A program made the position numbers and the translations under genes. The notes below the pieces were generated by a model, which was not told the origin of the DNA, did not search any database, and saw only the letters and a program-made list of their open reading frames with translations. From IMG/VR virus record IMGVR_UViG_2657244940_000001, positions 1-5,288 of that record: 5,288 nucleotides of DNA. One strand, 5' to 3'. Numbering within the stretch: position 1 is the first letter of the stretch; every line of letters begins with the position of its first letter. Below, in pieces: positions 1 to 5,288 of the stretch. This DNA is from a virus. Its lineage: Duplodnaviria > Heunggongvirae > Uroviricota > Caudoviricetes.

Positions 1-31
1 AGCATCGGTCACCACAGCAGCCACTGCTTTG

Positions 32-77
32 GCGGTACCAGTTTGTACACTTGCTTCCGGCTGGTACCGCTCTTTTT
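32..77 (+). terminator. Candidate intrinsic terminator-like hairpin followed by a T-run
   Basis: GCGGTACCAG at 32-41 is the perfect reverse complement of CTGGTACCGC at 61-70 (10-bp stem, 19-nt loop), followed directly by TCTTTTT at 71-77. The loop is larger than in typical rho-independent terminators, so this is tentative. Confidence 0.3.
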
Positions 78-166
78 ACAAAACAGAGAAGAGCATCACC
101 GGACGACGGGCTCATAACCCAATCCACCCGGGCGGCTGCCACCGCAGGTGTTCTTCTCTGTTTTGT
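78..166. repeat. Long-range perfect 15-bp inverted repeat flanking a GC-rich 59-nt spacer (possible leader RNA structure or protein-binding site)
   Basis: ACAAAACAGAGAAGA at 78-92 is the exact reverse complement of TCTTCTCTGTTTTGT at 152-166, checked by hand. It lies upstream of the rdgC-like start at 201. Confidence 0.4.
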
Positions 167-200
167 GGAGAAACTAATATCTTGTGCAGAGGAAAATAGA

Positions 201-1118
201 ATGAAATTACCAAAATTTCGTAACGCAATTGTGTACCGAGCAACATTACCTAGTATACAGGCTATTGAAGGTCATCTTCTCGAACTCCCTTATTCTGAAA
301 TCGGGGAAACAGAACTTTCACGGTCCTCTTTTGTAGAGAATCCTGTCACTGGTGAACTGGTAACTCCGATATCTGGTGGGTACGCAATGGTAATCCGTCA
401 TGATCAGAAAATAATTCCCCGACATGTCGTCATGAAAGAAGCTAATTCTCGAATCCAAACAATCGAAAATATGTCCGGGAATAAATTAAAGCGTGCCGAA
501 CGACTGACCATTATTGATAACGTACGAGTAGATCTATGCAAACAGGCATTTGTTAAGTCTACGCTGATTCTTGCATTGTACAGCACTGATGAGAAATTAT
601 TGGTAATCAACACAACCAATAAAATAATAGCCGGTATGGTATGCGCAATGCTGATTAAGGTTGTCGGTTCAGTGAAAACAGAAACAATCAACATCAGTGA
701 TATCAAGAATGGACTGACTACACGCCTGAATAACTACATCAATGGTGCAGCCAATGCATTTGAAGGATTCACTGTCGGAAATTATATTCAGCTATCACGC
801 TACGCAGATCAAAAGGAAATTATTCGCTACTCAGCTGAGCATGAGTCAATTCAAAGCGAACTGGCCGATAGCCTTAGTAGTAGTTTCACTGCTGATAAAA
901 TGGAGTTATCCGGTTGCGGTGTGACCTTCATTCTTACCGAAAATTTCCATTTTTCGCGCATCAATACTCAATCTCAGACATTTAATGATGAAGATGATAA
1001 AGCATTCCAGTGGCGTCATCAGACTGGCGCTGACCTTTTCCAATTCAGCAAGGTAGTTAATTTGATGTGTGACCTTCTTTCTTACAAAGAAGATAAAAGC
1101 CAAAATCCAACAACTTAA
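201..1118 (+). CDS. rdgC: RdgC-like recombination-associated protein (305 aa)
   Basis: The track ORF 51..1118 is trimmed to ATG 201, which has AGGA at 190-193 about 7 nt upstream. The resulting N-terminus MKLPKFRNAIVYRATLP resembles the N-terminus of E. coli RdgC (MLWFKNLMVYRL, from memory), and 305 aa is close to RdgC length. Not aligned. The frame is also open upstream of 201 to the window edge. Confidence 0.6.
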   Translation: MKLPKFRNAIVYRATLPSIQAIEGHLLELPYSEIGETELSRSSFVENPVTGELVTPISGGYAMVIRHDQKIIPRHVVMKEANSRIQTIENMSGNKLKRAERLTIIDNVRVDLCKQAFVKSTLILALYSTDEKLLVINTTNKIIAGMVCAMLIKVVGSVKTETINISDIKNGLTTRLNNYINGAANAFEGFTVGNYIQLSRYADQKEIIRYSAEHESIQSELADSLSSSFTADKMELSGCGVTFILTENFHFSRINTQSQTFNDEDDKAFQWRHQTGADLFQFSKVVNLMCDLLSYKEDKSQNPTT

Positions 1119-1122
1119 AAAA

Positions 1123-1166
1123 ATTGCAGCAATCATCCCATGTCAAATGGGCTGGATTGCTGCAAT
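1123..1166. promoter_or_regulatory. Pair of inverted near-palindromic 11-mers (ATTGCAGCAAT / ATTGCTGCAAT) in the rdgC-like/HD intergenic region: operator-like or RNA hairpin
   Basis: ATTGCAGCAAT at 1123-1133 and ATTGCTGCAAT at 1156-1166 are exact reverse complements, and each is itself a palindrome apart from the central base. Centres are about 33 bp apart, roughly three helical turns. An inner palindrome CCCAT-GTCAA-ATGGG lies at 1137-1151. A run of A at 1116-1122 precedes the element, so on the minus strand the hairpin would be followed by a T-run. Confidence 0.4.
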
Positions 1167-1208
1167 CAAAATTCAGAGCGGTGCAGCGCATATAACGTGG
1201 AGAACAAA

Positions 1209-1745
1209 ATGTCATTTATTAAAACTTTTTCCGGGAAGCATTTTTATTATGACAAGATAAATAAAGACGACATCGTGATTAACGATATCGCGGTTTCCCT
1301 TTCAAATATCTGCCGCTTTGCCGGTCATCTTTCTCATTTCTACAGCGTCGCCCAACATGCGGTGCTTTGCAGCCAGCTGGTACCGCAGGAATTTGCTTTT
1401 GAAGCATTAATGCATGATGCAACAGAAGCGTATTGCCAGGACATCCCCGCGCCACTGAAACGCCTTCTTCCTGACTATAAACGGATGGAAGAAAAAATAG
1501 ACGCCGTAATCCGTGAGAAATACGGGTTACCTCCTGTTATGAGCACGCCAGTGAAATATGCCGATCTCATTATGCTGGCAACCGAACGTCGCGATCTCGG
1601 GCTTGATGATGGCTCTTTCTGGCCAGTACTGGAAGGTATCCCGGCAACAGAAATGTTCAAAGTTATTCCACTGGCTCCGAGCCATGCCTACGGGATGTTT
1701 ATGGAGCGCTTTAACGAGTTATCGGAGTTACGCACATGCGCATGA
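1209..1745 (+). CDS. HD-domain phosphohydrolase, YfbR/YfdR-type 5'-(deoxy)nucleotidase family (178 aa)
   Basis: The track ORF 1140..1745 is trimmed to ATG 1209, which has GGAG at 1199-1202 6 nt upstream, whereas ATG 1140 has no SD and sits inside the palindromic element. The protein carries an H...HD...D metal-binding signature (AQHAVL ... LMHDATEAYCQDIPAPLKR) that closely resembles the YfbR motif HDASEVLTGDLPTPVKY recalled from memory. 178 aa matches the size of prophage YfdR-type proteins. Confidence 0.75.
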   Translation: MSFIKTFSGKHFYYDKINKDDIVINDIAVSLSNICRFAGHLSHFYSVAQHAVLCSQLVPQEFAFEALMHDATEAYCQDIPAPLKRLLPDYKRMEEKIDAVIREKYGLPPVMSTPVKYADLIMLATERRDLGLDDGSFWPVLEGIPATEMFKVIPLAPSHAYGMFMERFNELSELRTCA

Positions 1746-2347
1746 ATGTTTTCGAAATGGAAGGGTTTCTTCGCGGGAAATGTGTACCACGAGATCTGAA
1801 AGTGAATGAAACAAATGCTGAATATCTGGTGCGTAAATTTGCTGAAGCGGAGGCCAAGATTTTGGCTCTGTCCGAAGACCAACAGAAAGCGATTGAGTCA
1901 ATTAAGCAGGCTGATGCAGCTGTTAAGTTGGCACACGAGAAGTTTTCGGCGCTGGCGGCGGAGAATGCGGGGCTGAAACACGCAATGGCCGTAACTCTTG
2001 AGCATGTGTCGGTCACGGATGCAGGGCAGGCTGGTGTTGCTGCAATGATTATCAACGATGCCCTGCACCACAGCGAAACTCCAGCCACCGATGATTTCCT
2101 GGCTGAAATTCGTGCGGAAGCACGCAACGAGGGGATTAACTATACCGCAAGCCGTCTTGCTGCTGCTTTCAATCACGGATTTATCAATAAGTCTTTACGT
2201 GAAGTTTTCGACGTTACACGCATGATTCTGTCAGCGAAAGAAGAGTTGGCTAATGAACCACACCCGATTGATGGCCTGTCCGGTGAATATGCGGAGAAAT
2301 CCCTAGAAGAATGGGCGGAACAGATTCGCAAAGGAGGCAACCAGTGA
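1736..2347 (+). CDS. Hypothetical phage protein, Ala/Glu-rich, probably partly coiled-coil (203 aa)
   Basis: Complete ORF. ATG 1736 has GGAG at 1724-1727 8 nt upstream, and the alternative ATG 1742 forms an ATGA overlap with the upstream stop at 1743-1745. No family recognised. Confidence 0.6.
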   Translation: MRMNVFEMEGFLRGKCVPRDLKVNETNAEYLVRKFAEAEAKILALSEDQQKAIESIKQADAAVKLAHEKFSALAAENAGLKHAMAVTLEHVSVTDAGQAGVAAMIINDALHHSETPATDDFLAEIRAEARNEGINYTASRLAAAFNHGFINKSLREVFDVTRMILSAKEELANEPHPIDGLSGEYAEKSLEEWAEQIRKGGNQ

Positions 2348-2568
2348 GCGGAAAAAGAATGACTAACAGAGAGCTTGTTGATGCCGCGATTAAGCTTGCT
2401 GGTGATTTTTATTCAATGATGGGGTACGCGCATCGCCCTGGATTCAAATATTGGGAATCACCGCATCCGCAAGAGCAACTGGTATTTCAAATGGCCTGCC
2501 GTGCTTTTGAGGTTATTCGCGGTTCTGATGTGATGGACGCCGTTGCCGACTTGGAGGATGAAGAGTGA
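2344..2568 (+). CDS. Hypothetical small acidic phage protein (74 aa from GTG 2344, or 69 aa if ATG 2359 is used)
   Basis: Lies in the frame of track ORF 2311..2568. GTG 2344 has AGGAGG at 2332-2337 6 nt upstream and overlaps the upstream stop as GTGA. The in-frame ATG 2359 has only a weak SD. The C-terminus is acidic (DLEDEE). Confidence 0.5.
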   Translation: MSGKRMTNRELVDAAIKLAGDFYSMMGYAHRPGFKYWESPHPQEQLVFQMACRAFEVIRGSDVMDAVADLEDEE

Positions 2569-3122
2569 CCCAAATTAACTATCAGGCACTGCGTGAAAAG
2601 GCAGAGAAAGCAACTAAAGGAAGCTACATCGTAGGGCATACATCTGTTAACCAGCACGGCAATTTAACAGGAGTTTTTGTTTGCCAAAAATGGAAAGGAG
2701 AACCCGGTGGCGTGATTGCGGAATGTCATGTTAACTGCCTGATTGAATCAGATGCTCAGGCTTATGCAAACGCTGAATTCATAGCAGAGGCTAACCCGGC
2801 TACCGTGCTGGCACTGCTGGATGAACAGGAAAGAAACCAGCAATACATCAAACGCCGCGACCAGGAGAACGAGGAGATTGCGCTTACGGTTGGGAAGCTG
2901 CGTGTTGAGCTTGAAGCAGAAAAACAGCGGGCAAAAGTTCTATTTATGGAAAATGCTCGGCTTAAGTCAGGCATAGCCGGTCTGATACACCTCGGTATTC
3001 GATATGCAGATGTTGAGGTCATGAAAATTGCTGGAGATGCCCAGCTTTCTACTCCATGCACTGACAGCATCATAAACAGCATTGCAGCAGGCATTTTCAC
3101 CAAAGAGGGGGCAGCACGATGA
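2565..3122 (+). CDS. Ead/Ea22-like family protein (185 aa)
   Basis: GTG start at 2565 overlaps the upstream stop (GTGA), with GGAGG at 2553-2557 7 nt upstream. The first in-frame ATG is far downstream, so the GTG start is needed. The N-terminal QALREKAEKATKG and the internal motif NAEFIAEANPATVLALLDEQE match the signature I recall for lambdoid Ead/Ea22-like proteins, followed by a charged coiled-coil-like segment. Confidence 0.65.
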   Translation: MTQINYQALREKAEKATKGSYIVGHTSVNQHGNLTGVFVCQKWKGEPGGVIAECHVNCLIESDAQAYANAEFIAEANPATVLALLDEQERNQQYIKRRDQENEEIALTVGKLRVELEAEKQRAKVLFMENARLKSGIAGLIHLGIRYADVEVMKIAGDAQLSTPCTDSIINSIAAGIFTKEGAAR

Positions 3123-3304
3123 GAACACTAGAGGTTCGCGCTGAAGACGTAATCCCTGGTGATGTGCTCATAACATCTAAAGGTCAACAATGTGCGGTTA
3201 AATCTTTTTGGATGGAAAATGACAAAGTGACTCTGTTCGGTACGGATGGTTCCGAAACTGATTATGACTACGACGAATTGCTTGTTATTGAGAGAGCTGC
3301 CTAA
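3119..3304 (+). CDS. Hypothetical small phage protein (61 aa)
   Basis: ATG 3119 overlaps the upstream stop (ATGA), with AGAGGGGG at 3104-3110 upstream. Complete ORF, no family recognised. Confidence 0.5.
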   Translation: MRTLEVRAEDVIPGDVLITSKGQQCAVKSFWMENDKVTLFGTDGSETDYDYDELLVIERAA

Positions 3305-3891
3305 TGACCACCTTTACCAAAGAACAGTTAATCTCCCATGCACGCGAAAGCGTTAGTTATCTGGAAAACTTGAAAGGACGTGTTAGCAAAGAAGGTGCGG
3401 ACTGCAAAGTTGTTATTGAGATGGTTGCACGAGATCTAAAACTGGCACGAATTGCACTGGCCTCGCTTGAGGCAAAGCCGGTGGCGTGGAAGGTAACCTT
3501 CACGCAAATTGACCGTGAATATAACACGTTCACTGGTATGTATTCTGACAAAGCAGAAGTCGAACGGTGGGTGCGGCTGCATAAAGCATGTAATTTTCGG
3601 GCAGATATAACACCGCTTTATACCGCCCAGCCAGTGCCGGTAACTCCGGATGCCTGGATAAGCTGTAGTGAGCGAATGCCAGAAATGGGAGAGCGACAAT
3701 GCTATGTGTTAGCTGCTGACTTTAAAAACAACTACCCACCAAACATCCCCAACACTCAGGTCGGCGTATATGGCGACTGGTTTAATGATGGCAAGCCCAC
3801 TTGGGATGACGGTGATGGCGAAGACCTGTATCTCAAGGAGGTAACCCACTGGATGCCGCTGCCAGAACCGCCGCAGGAGGTGAATCAATGA
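3304..3891 (+). CDS. DUF551-domain phage protein (195 aa)
   Basis: ATG 3304 overlaps the upstream TAA (TAATG). The C-terminal region (W-x-C-x-ERMPE ... THWMPLPEPP) matches the signature I recall for the prophage DUF551 family. The N-terminal half is unassigned. Confidence 0.65.
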   Translation: MTTFTKEQLISHARESVSYLENLKGRVSKEGADCKVVIEMVARDLKLARIALASLEAKPVAWKVTFTQIDREYNTFTGMYSDKAEVERWVRLHKACNFRADITPLYTAQPVPVTPDAWISCSERMPEMGERQCYVLAADFKNNYPPNIPNTQVGVYGDWFNDGKPTWDDGDGEDLYLKEVTHWMPLPEPPQEVNQ

Positions 3892-3971
3892 GCTGGCCTG
3901 ATGCAATCGTAACTCTGGGGATGGTATTCGCAGTAGCGTTTGTTGTGTACTCGATTTGTCGATGGGGATAA
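3888..3971 (+). CDS. Small hydrophobic single-pass membrane peptide (27 aa: MSWPDAIVTLGMVFAVAFVVYSICRWG), not in the ORF track
   Basis: ATG 3888 overlaps the upstream stop (ATGA 3888-3891), with AGGAGG at 3875-3880 7 nt upstream. Hand translation runs to TAA at 3969-3971 and contains an 18-residue hydrophobic stretch followed by R-W-G. Confidence 0.45.
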   Translation: MSWPDAIVTLGMVFAVAFVVYSICRWG

Positions 3972-3975
3972 CCAC

Positions 3976-4218
3976 ATGTTCGCTTTGATTCAACGCGGGC
4001 AGATATACACCGATAGTGCTGGCTACCCGATAAAAATTGTTCACTGCATAAACAACACTGTGTTGTACAGAAGAATGGATGGGCGAACACAGTCAGTAAA
4101 AATAAACGATTTCAATGAACTGTTTGAACGGATTGATCACCAGGAATACCGACAAATTCTGGCAGAAACAGAGCAGGAAGCTCATCTGAAAAAATTACGG
4201 GCCATGAAAAGGAAGTAA
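3976..4218 (+). CDS. Hypothetical small phage protein, possibly DUF4222-like (80 aa)
   Basis: The track ORF 3940..4218 is trimmed to ATG 3976, which has GGGGA at 3964-3968 upstream, because the 3940 start would overlap the preceding small ORF without an SD. The DUF4222 resemblance is weak recall only. Confidence 0.5.
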   Translation: MFALIQRGQIYTDSAGYPIKIVHCINNTVLYRRMDGRTQSVKINDFNELFERIDHQEYRQILAETEQEAHLKKLRAMKRK

Positions 4219-4221
4219 ACA

Positions 4222-4368
4222 ATGAATAAAGCATTTGAACAATGGGTCCACCAGCGTTACGGCAATCGCTATGACCTGACACGAGATGTTGACGGTTTCT
4301 ACTGTCGTGAAATTGTGAAACGAATGTTTGAAGTGTGGTGCCACTGCCGTGGGCTGAGTGTTGTGTGA
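4222..4368 (+). CDS. Small Cys/His-containing protein (48 aa: MNKAFEQWVHQRYGNRYDLTRDVDGFYCREIVKRMFEVWCHCRGLSVV), not in the ORF track
   Basis: ATG 4222 lies 4 nt after the upstream stop, with AAGGAAG at 4210-4215 upstream. Hand translation runs to TGA at 4366-4368. It fills the gap before the xis-like gene. Residues C28, C40, H41 and C42 could form a small metal-binding site (speculative). Confidence 0.4.
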   Translation: MNKAFEQWVHQRYGNRYDLTRDVDGFYCREIVKRMFEVWCHCRGLSVV

Positions 4369-4376
4369 GGTAATGC

Positions 4377-4613
4377 ATGGGCAATGTGATTCAACTGGCT
4401 CCCAATGAATGGGTTTGTGAAAGCGTTCTAATCGCAATTACCGGGCTCAAACCAGGCACAATTCTTCGGGCCCGGAAAGAATGCTGGATGGTTGGAAGAG
4501 AGTATATTCACGTATCACCAGACGGTAATCCAAAGCCTTCCAGTGAATGTATGTATAACAGAAAAGCAATAGATGCCTGGGTCGCTTCAATGAAAAACAA
4601 ACAACCTGGGTGA
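4377..4613 (+). CDS. xis: Excisionase-like / AlpA-family HTH DNA-binding protein (78 aa)
   Basis: ATG 4377 has GAGG at 4367-4370 6 nt upstream. It sits immediately upstream of the integrase in the same orientation. The segment IAITGLKPGTILRARKE resembles the AlpA/excisionase HTH motif (ITGLSRSTIYR), and the NEW...W pattern resembles putative prophage excisionases (recall). Confidence 0.55.
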   Translation: MGNVIQLAPNEWVCESVLIAITGLKPGTILRARKECWMVGREYIHVSPDGNPKPSSECMYNRKAIDAWVASMKNKQPG

Positions 4614-4668
4614 TTTAATATCATGAAATATGTAAGCTCGTATCGCTCTTGGGCGTCTGGAGGTATCG

Positions 4669-5288
4669 ATGGATAAAGTCAAATATCCAACAGGCGTCGA
4701 AAACCACGGCGGCACATTACGCATCTGGTTTAATTTTAAAGGTAAACGTGTCAGGGAAAATCTTGGTGTCCCTGACACTGCCAAGAACAGGAAGATCGCC
4801 GGGGAACTGCGGACATCAGTATGTTTTGCCATCCGCACAGGAAGCTTTGATTATGCTGCACAGTTCCCTGACTCCCCCAACCTTCAGGCTTTTGGGGTAA
4901 GTAAAAAAGAAATTACGGTGAAGGAACTTGAAGAAAAGTGGCTGGATCTGAAACGAATGGAAATCTCTGCAAATGCATTCAATCGCTATGAATCCGTTGC
5001 AAGAACGATGGTTTCGAAAATTGGAGGCAGTAGACTGGTGTCATCGGTAACCAAAGAGGAATTGCTGTATATCAGGAAAGATTTGCTAACCGGGTATCAG
5101 AATTCAACGAAAAACAAAGCAGCAGCAAAAGGACGGAGCGTCGTTACTGTAAATTATTACATGACGACAATCGCTGGAATGTTTCAGTTTGCTGCAGATC
5201 ACGGTTACTTAGAAGCAAATCCCTTTCAGGGAATTAAGCCTCTTAAAAGAGCCAGGGCAGAGCCAGATCCGCTAACTCGTGACGAATT
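4669..5288 (+). CDS. int: Tyrosine-type phage integrase, N-terminal ~206 aa (partial, continues past the window end)
   Basis: ATG 4669 has GGAGG at 4659-4663 5 nt upstream. I translated the frame by hand to position 5286 with no stop (MDKVKYPTGVENHGGTLRIWFNFKGKRVRENLGV...). This N-terminal pattern resembles the arm-binding N-termini of enterobacterial cryptic-prophage integrases (recall). It is missing from the ORF track because no stop falls inside the window. Confidence 0.8.
   Translation, partial: MDKVKYPTGVENHGGTLRIWFNFKGKRVRENLGVPDTAKNRKIAGELRTSVCFAIRTGSFDYAAQFPDSPNLQAFGVSKKEITVKELEEKWLDLKRMEISANAFNRYESVARTMVSKIGGSRLVSSVTKEELLYIRKDLLTGYQNSTKNKAAAKGRSVVTVNYYMTTIAGMFQFAADHGYLEANPFQGIKPLKRARAEPDPLTRDE

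Follow-up and report, generated by a model that had tools for sequence, protein, structure and literature searches.

A conserved 27-codon reading frame in the early-left region of lambdoid prophages and the membrane peptide it is predicted to encode

In Escherichia coli and Salmonella, peptides such as MgrB, MgtS, MgtR, PmrR, AcrZ, KdpF, CydX and SgrT, each shorter than 50 residues and made of a single helix, bind a larger membrane protein; regulators of the MgrB/MgtS/AcrZ class are chromosomal, are mostly the products of stand-alone regulated genes, and have known partners. Phages also encode accessory proteins of the inner membrane that serve superinfection exclusion or block injection, among them T4 Imm, T4 Sp, P22 SieA and HK97 gp15, which have about 80-160 residues or more; T4 imm is an early gene, and the exclusion proteins of temperate phages are expressed from the repressed prophage. 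Here we describe a small open reading frame (sORF) of 27 codons that lies between a DUF551-domain gene and a DUF4222 gene in a 5,288-nucleotide (nt) stretch, positions 1 to 5,288 of IMG/VR virus record IMGVR_UViG_2657244940_000001; this whole stretch, which is the early-left arm of an E. coli lambdoid prophage, is referred to below as the window. We conclude with high confidence that the sORF is a genuine protein-coding gene of lambdoid prophages (Shiga toxin (Stx)-type and related) and of phage-like plasmids in Enterobacteriaceae, and its product is predicted to be a membrane peptide.

Several described groups offer points of comparison. With the small inner-membrane regulators the sORF product shares a length below 50 amino acids (aa), a predicted single pass and what looks like a packing face (G11/A15/S22) of the kind those peptides use, and with the exclusion proteins it shares being phage-encoded, accessory and, by prediction, located in the inner membrane. 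Like the type I toxins (Hok/Gef, IbsC, ShoB, DinQ, TisB, Ldr), which have 19-50 residues, one hydrophobic helix and often a prophage or plasmid location, it is short and hydrophobic and is carried by mobile elements, and in 933W-type phages mok/hok is the next element downstream of it. Finally, the sORF sits in the same neighbourhood, and presumably on the same early transcript, as the lambdoid exo-xis/ea genes (ea22, orf60a, orf61, orf63, orf73), which are reported to be non-essential modulators of the lysis-lysogeny decision, lysogenisation and prophage induction.

Frame conservation of the sORF

Open reading frames (ORFs) of 20-30 codons are numerous in the window, and the length of the sORF alone is not beyond chance. 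A tblastn search with the sORF peptide against 50,697 phage records matched 95 of them, 93 over at least 80% of the query, and matches in E. coli and Shigella phages show 48-96% identity. They include 933W, VT2-Sakai, Min27, BP-4795, YYZ-2008, phi467 and many Stx1 and Stx2 phages; phage lambda itself gave no match to the peptide among the tblastn matches listed, and a tblastn search of the same phage set with the divergent POCJ13-type variant found none.

To this can be added a search with a degenerate DNA pattern for W-P-[DE]-A...Y-S-I-C-R-W that specified neither start nor stop, by which more than 120 IMG/VR contigs or loci were matched. Of 126 matches, 122 nonetheless have ATG as codon 1 and two more have GTG, and in 124 a stop follows directly after codon 27. 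Start, stop and length are thus fixed across copies although the pattern ignored start and stop, far beyond what chance would give.

Because such a pattern itself presupposes the frame, an unbiased sample was also drawn, in which loci were chosen through their neighbouring genes and the element was placed by a frame-blind nucleotide hidden Markov model. The sORF is intact in all 50 copies anchored on DUF4222 and in 30 of the 38 anchored on DUF551, that is, in 80 of 88 overall; of the broken DUF551-anchored copies, six carry a TGG to TAG change at codon 3 (one lineage), one is frameshifted and one truncated. At the neighbour-anchored loci the ratio of non-synonymous to synonymous polymorphism (pN/pS) is 0.45 in the sORF frame; the two remaining sense frames give 1.01 and 1.24, and both carry stops in 14 of 14 distinct sequences. 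Counted over the codons that the search pattern left free, pN/pS is 0.50 as against 0.86 and 1.54. Variable sites are concentrated at third codon positions (23 of 26, compared with 28 of 52 first and second positions; Fisher p = 0.0025). Within the clade beginning MNWPEAF, the changes that set six further DNA variants apart from the commonest one fall at five synonymous positions and a single non-synonymous one, and 74 of the 89 amino-acid replacements along the minimum spanning tree remain small or hydrophobic. The sORF is under frame-specific purifying selection, and we regard it as very probably a real, translated gene.

A preliminary description of this DNA, made from its letters alone, had called attention to a 27-aa ORF with AGGAGG at a spacing of 7 nt and an ATGA overlap with the DUF551 gene; direct reading of the sequence bears out every one of these features. 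The single hydrophobic helix that it saw in the product is likewise there, residues 6-24 having a mean Kyte-Doolittle value of 2.42, which fits one transmembrane helix. The same description proposed that the ORF was an overlooked small gene and named conservation of the frame in homologous regions as the observation to look for. The intact copies and pN/pS values given above show such conservation, and in most public records the gene carries no annotation.

Ribosome binding, mobility and distribution of the module

Nearly all of 202 homologous loci have a Shine-Dalgarno (SD) sequence of the GGAGG type 7-10 nt before the ATG, and the upstream sequences in which it is kept include at least two that are unrelated. 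In 143 of these loci the upstream stop and the sORF start overlap as ATGA and in 34 as TGATG, together 177 of 202. The mRNA around the sORF start in the window is less stably folded than shuffled controls (z = +1.96). Downstream, the start of the DUF4222 gene lies only 4 nt beyond the sORF stop, and the GGGGA within the last sORF codons is probably its SD. A programmed frameshift from DUF551 into the sORF frame was considered and rejected, no slippery heptamer being seen in CCGCAGGAGGTGAATCAATGA.

What lies on either side of the sORF varies widely. Among 107 sORF-anchored loci the upstream gene is of DUF551 type in 41 and encodes a 114-aa protein ending ...GLISVEDILR in about 52, the rest having at least three other proteins; in the records that were opened, the upstream partners are DUF551, Ea22-like, 933W L0139-type, and the 114-aa protein, for which there is no Pfam match. 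In every opened record the sORF falls in an unannotated gap, with its ATG overlapping the stop of the preceding gene, whatever that gene is. Downstream, 94 of the 202 loci have DUF4222 and 43 have mok/hok at about 154 nt, and elsewhere there is an 80-aa protein, an ORF6N protein, convergent toxin-antitoxin genes, or nothing. The sORF is an independent mobile module, always accompanied by its own SD and with unrelated genes on both sides.

The SD and spacer of the sORF also encode the last residues of the differing upstream proteins, which is why their tails are alike (...EVNQ, ...KVNQ, ...EVK), and recombination therefore moves the sORF along with its ribosome-binding site. On the DUF551 side, the codons of the conserved C-terminal tail PPQEV (HWMPLPEPPQEV; window 3862-3891) supply CAGGAGGTG, which acts as SD for any gene that follows DUF551, unrelated ones included, with an ATGA or TGATG overlap (L246, L247, L257-L259, L270, L284). 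One such alternative gene encodes a hydrophobic protein of 50 or more aa (MDSFAKYTIIDWIAFLQVLLIWFY...). From its sequence, the end of DUF551 looks like a fixed joint for recombination and coupling between modules. This bears on a further claim of the preliminary description, that the sORF has one of the strongest ribosome-binding contexts in the window. The claim stands insofar as AGGAGG occurs just three times on the + strand (2332, 3836 and 3875), the other two copies being intragenic (3836 in the DUF551 gene, 2332 in ORF 1736..2347) and, as the sequence reads, serving no comparable free start; it needs qualifying in that the strength of the SD belongs in part to the junction, whose PPQEV codons supply an SD for other genes too.

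The same junction touches the annotation of 933W L0139 (L006 1034-1504; 156 aa) and VT2-Sakai orf75, whose annotated start lies inside the DUF551 gene in an alternative frame (VDNSWCVVETVTLDAATRTAAGGE...). Judging by the sequence, the true start of L0139 is likely to be the ATG just past the DUF551 SD (MENEGDNII...), the junction position that is used elsewhere by the sORF, and the annotation is probably about 25 codons too long. In 933W and VT2-Sakai (L006, L007 1501-1950) about 154 nt separate the end of the sORF from mokW/hokW downstream, which comes with the antisense RNA SokW, so that the early-left region of 933W-type phages closes with two adjacent small membrane peptides of unlike kinds, one of them predicted here.

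All genes of the window lie on the + strand in one co-directional block (Table 1); they were assigned from the list of ORFs, from Pfam and from a 99% identical prophage annotated in RefSeq, in which an integrase gene comes next after the excisionase gene. A simple consensus scan, which weak or other promoters could escape, found no promoter-like site, of sigma-70 type, and no terminator-like site on either strand across 3300-4700, and a simple Rfam scan of the whole window, suggestive rather than final, gave no match at E <= 1, Sok-like RNAs included. As these scans gave no promoter-like or terminator-like site and no Rfam match, and the start region is exposed, the sORF appears to be an internal cistron rather than a stand-alone locus or structured RNA.

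Table 1. Features around the sORF, in window coordinates
Feature	Position	Strand	Basis or remark
rdgC-like gene, yfdR, ea22-like gene and 61-aa ORF, in this order		+	5' of the DUF551 gene
DUF551-domain gene (ea/Ea22 region)	3304..3891	+	Pfam PF04448, E 3.5e-20; PHROG 60
SD of the sORF, AGGAGG	3875..3880	+	7-nt spacer TGAATCA to the ATG; doubles as Q-E-V coding of the DUF551 tail
sORF, 27 codons and stop	3888..3971	+	Direct sequence reading; ATG 3888-3890, TAA 3969-3971; product MSWPDAIVTLGMVFAVAFVVYSICRWG
ATGA start/stop overlap of sORF and DUF551 gene	3888..3891	+	DUF551 TGA at 3889-3891; read as translational coupling
Predicted transmembrane helix, codons 6-24	3903..3959	+	Hydropathy and conservation; flanks W3-P4 and R25-W26
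GGGGA in the last sORF codons (W26-G27)	3964..3968	+	7 nt before the DUF4222 start; putative role
DUF4222 gene	3976..4218	+	Pfam PF13973, E 9.9e-16
48-aa ORF after DUF4222	4222..4368	+	RefSeq annotation of 99% identical prophage
Excisionase gene	4377..4613	+	RefSeq annotation of 99% identical prophage

According to a review (PMC10877973), RgdR (ECs1581), a prophage-encoded activator of the type III secretion system of the locus of enterocyte effacement in O157:H7, belongs to the DUF4222 proteins and carries an RGD motif. The DUF4222 protein of the window has RGQ at the position aligned to this RGD, and its similarity to RgdR is distant (BLASTP E 0.012). A role for the sORF as an upstream element of this regulator was rejected, both on this distant similarity and because the RgdR gene of the P4-like Sp7 of Sakai has no sORF upstream.

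Of 5,426 complete E. coli genomes, 297 contain a member of the window copy's close sub-family, which nearly always lies where nothing is annotated, and the prophage of the O104:H4 outbreak strain C227-11 is among the carriers. The variant MSWPEAFTTVGIVMAAALGLYSICRWW, which ends in RWW and has the same ATGA arrangement, occurs on about 180 plasmids from E. coli, Salmonella and Klebsiella. These plasmids are almost all non-mobilizable and those listed are mostly of 80-130 kb; we take them to be phage-plasmids. In one of them, NZ_CP028125.1 (L292 1501-1584), the sORF copy follows a DUF551 gene and is unannotated.

RefSeq annotation by PGAP mostly skips the sORF or starts it from an in-frame upstream ATG, giving an N-extended "hypothetical protein" of 40-45 aa such as WP_255625547.1, whose DNA is identical to window 3892-3968; used as a query, the 41-aa in-frame extension matched only two N-extended E. 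coli proteins of 40 aa. The few 27-aa annotations in GenBank read "putative prophage protein" (E. coli 042) or "bacteriophage protein". The exact 27-aa peptide of the window is absent from a collection of 15 billion proteins. A HMMER search of 1.84 billion representative proteins gave 23 matches, 22 of which belong to the sORF family by inspection: distant variants (MAWSGALTIAGVAIAMAFLVYVICRWG, MEISWPEAIMWIGIAFAAALAIYSIMRWGD), in-frame Ala-Met repeat expansions and N-extended ORF calls. The remaining match, P0046, aligns only to the N-terminal columns of the query that lie outside the sORF. Since the matches are the family itself plus this one protein aligned off the sORF, the peptide is not a fragment of a larger known protein, and the family is narrow and restricted to enterobacterial phages. 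In P0058, P0061 and P0063 an Ala-Met or Ala-Val dipeptide is expanded within the helix (MAMAMAMA...), giving 31-35 residues with the frame kept and a longer span; these expansions look like products of slippage on a GCNATG repeat. The divergent copy of the POCJ13 and 75/02 Stx lineage (L219 2262-2345; L220, L283, L287-L289) has V in place of G11 as well as the stop at codon 3 but is otherwise unbroken, which suggests that it became a pseudogene recently. The 143-aa ORF call P0064 ends in an intact relative of this sub-type (MSWPDAFAIAGVAMSIALIVFAICRWG).

No match to the peptide was found in Pfam, PHROGs, NCBIfam, PADLOC, PDB sequences or Rfam, with permissive E-values for Pfam, NCBIfam and PADLOC, and the protein searches among these gave no homology to a known toxin, exclusion or defence family. 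The preliminary description had likened its profile to that of small phage peptides that kill the host, exclude superinfection or modulate membrane proteins. Nor is the sORF mentioned in the literature found on DUF551, DUF4222 and exo-xis, or in the supplements of the Sakai ribosome-profiling (Ribo-seq) paper. The peptide is not itself a DUF551 protein, as it gives no match to PF04448. Clusters at 90% identity file 27-aa peptides together with DUF551 proteins of 121 and 185 aa, and NCBI names some partial copies of 30-31 aa 'DUF551 domain-containing protein'. Genuine DUF551-sORF fusion proteins were considered and rejected, as the 121-aa and 185-aa cluster members lack the peptide and the apparent fusions L086 and L058 are 1-nt deletion copies with no start codon; the DUF551 label on sORF copies looks like an artefact of clustering and naming carried over from the overlapping neighbour.

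The predicted peptide and its possible action

The ends of the sORF peptide are conserved throughout the family as M-x-W-P-[DE]-A and Y-S-I-C-R-W, the window peptide having the C-terminal tail C-R-W-G. Over 37 distinct peptides M1, W3, A6, S22 and W26 never vary, and only D or E occurs at position 5; P4, G11, A15, Y21, I23, C24 and R25 are nearly invariant, and A17 is well conserved. The tryptophans at the two ends are 23 residues apart and the sole arginine is near the C-terminus, a spacing and a charge placement that fit one span with the C-terminus inside. On a helical wheel G11 (280 degrees), A15 (320), L/F18 (260) and S22 (300) fall along one stripe of largely small residues, which may be of the kind that packs helix against helix. 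The summed Hessa insertion energy of the window peptide is -1.1 kcal/mol. Hydropathy and conservation together make a single-pass membrane peptide the strongly favoured prediction.

The reading that we favour overall, albeit with modest confidence, is that the sORF is a translationally coupled gene of the early-left operon whose single-pass inner-membrane peptide acts by helix packing. The sORF would be transcribed as one cistron of the early-left block (rdgC, yfdR, ea22-like, DUF551, sORF, DUF4222, xis, int), presumably after infection or induction. Its consensus SD, in unstructured mRNA, should allow efficient translation, and ribosomes terminating on DUF551 could re-initiate at the overlapping ATG. 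The 27-residue product would then insert in the inner membrane with a single helix at about residues 6-24, W3-P4 anchoring it at one interface and Y21, R25 and W26 at the other, and the single arginine would favour an orientation with the C-terminus in. Action within the membrane would run through the stripe G11-x3-A15-x2-(L/F)18-x3-S22, and the partner packed against might be the peptide itself or, more probably, a host inner-membrane protein modulated early after infection or induction. As a modulator of this sort the sORF would serve an accessory, non-essential function.

Several observations weigh against this reading or parts of it. With regard to the gene, copies of one lineage, identified as Shigella phage POCJ13 and 75/02 Stx type, have TAG at codon 3, and in two copies of the pattern-derived set, L086 and L058, loss of 1 nt after the ATG shifts the frame and leaves no start codon; since some copies are broken, the sORF is dispensable. 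It is absent from 42 of 80 DUF551-anchored loci, and many DUF4222 and DUF551 genes have no adjoining sORF, so that, like most accessory genes of phages, it is optional. A pN/pS of 0.45-0.5 speaks for moderate, not strong, selection, and one antisense frame, whose third positions coincide with those of the sORF, has a pN/pS of 0.53. No Ribo-seq or proteomic record of the sORF was found in the literature or its supplements. With regard to the peptide, the commonest variant has a borderline insertion energy of about +0.2 kcal/mol on the same scale, though both energies are within the range of real membrane helices and not extreme, and the idea of helix packing is drawn from a conservation pattern whose overall moment is weak (0.10).

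How might such a peptide act if not by packing against a partner? One answer is that it is a membrane-damaging toxin in the manner of IbsC, ShoB, DinQ or TisB but without an antisense RNA, whose expression from the early-left operon depolarises or permeabilises the inner membrane and so shuts down or kills the host. Its size, its single very hydrophobic helix and its location on a mobile element fit that class, the 43 loci in which it precedes mok/hok show that toxins do occur in the region, and dispensability with occasional inactivation would suit an accessory toxin. However, neither the promoter scan nor the Rfam scan turned up the elements of a toxin locus, the peptide has no homology to Hok/Gef (PF01848 HOK_GEF) or other toxin families, the strong open SD and the coupling are the opposite of the repressed translation typical of type I toxins, and the helix lacks polar or charged residues able to line a pore. 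We consider such a toxin, the main alternative, unlikely, and we lean, tentatively, towards a modulator that packs against a partner in preference to it. With no promoter-like site and no signal of an antisense RNA, a type I toxin-antitoxin locus and a classical exclusion gene expressed in the lysogen are both somewhat disfavoured; the absence of a promoter-like site is what tells against the latter, and exclusion during the infection cycle is possible.

A different role is suggested by the coupling itself, namely that the peptide is a membrane partner or anchor of the upstream protein, usually DUF551, made in fixed ratio to it and tethering it. The ATGA or TGATG arrangement at most loci, the DUF551-type tails before 41 of the 107 sORF-anchored loci, and some in-frame fusion or extension ORF calls (e.g. 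P0064, an Ea22-like protein joined to the sORF) would agree with this. Yet the upstream proteins are of at least five unrelated kinds and in most sORF-anchored loci are not DUF551, more than half of the DUF551-anchored loci lack the sORF, and the apparent fusions are frameshifted and start-less with no slippery heptamer in sight, so that we regard an anchor as very unlikely. More improbable still is a scheme in which the act of translation alone matters, the sORF relaying ribosomes from DUF551 to DUF4222 and its peptide having no function. Such a relay would account for the tight overlap on one side, the short gap on the other and the probable DUF4222 SD inside the last sORF codons, but it is the amino-acid sequence, beyond a mere open frame, that is conserved; moreover, the peptide is retained unchanged in kind at loci with no gene close behind it (before mok/hok at its distance, or before convergent genes), and DUF4222 genes occur without the sORF. 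Scarcely credible, lastly, is a chance spacer ORF or a conserved element that is really an RNA or an antisense gene: short ORFs are common and antisense ORFs of 85 and 111 codons do span the region, but start, stop and length are fixed in divergent copies, selection is frame-specific, there is no Rfam match or stable fold, and the 85-codon antisense ORF was rejected as a true gene because its low ratio mirrors the sense third positions and because these antisense ORFs cross three sense genes that recombine independently between phages and could not be conserved as units.

Within the favoured reading of an early-left membrane peptide that packs against a partner, a more specific proposal can be framed: a dedicated early effector that binds one host inner-membrane machine and, during the Stx phage infection cycle, tunes lysogeny and lysis or excludes superinfection. 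We rate this as quite improbable, and its targets are speculative: the FtsH/HflKC protease (stability of CII/CIII), the ManYZ channel (entry of lambdoid DNA), or a division or transport complex. If it were true, Shiga-toxin output would be affected and the much-studied 933W and VT2-Sakai would hold a previously unrecognised regulator. Should the product prove to be no more than an accessory peptide, dispensable and mild in phenotype, the value of the finding is a correction of annotation and little more. That correction extends to the gene models of 933W, VT2-Sakai, the O104:H4 prophage, many Stx1 and Stx2 phages, and phage-like plasmids. Annotation systematically overlooks small membrane peptides, here in medically important and heavily studied genomes, and the sORF is a cheaply testable candidate for an early phage function in the poorly understood ea/exo-xis region.

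Comparison with known systems

Set beside the systems with which we began, the sORF departs from each in a different way. The type I toxins differ from it in sequence and in genetic layout: the sORF has no similarity to them, no antisense RNA or promoter of its own was detected in the scans described above, and it is an operon gene that has a strong, exposed SD and a start coupled to the preceding stop, and is not translationally silenced. From the small inner-membrane regulators it is set apart by being phage-borne and by having no homology to them. The exclusion proteins are larger than the sORF product, which has no PHROG or PADLOC match and whose gene has no promoter-like site in the consensus scan. 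As for the exo-xis/ea proteins of its own neighbourhood, they are soluble, whereas the sORF product is predicted to lie in the membrane; a modelling paper on them does not contain the word 'transmembrane' and uses 'membrane' only in unrelated senses. The sORF peptides form a sequence orphan family, by kind they go with the small membrane peptides encoded by phages and plasmids, and the one defining feature that they hold in common with the named families is that of a small, single-helix membrane peptide.

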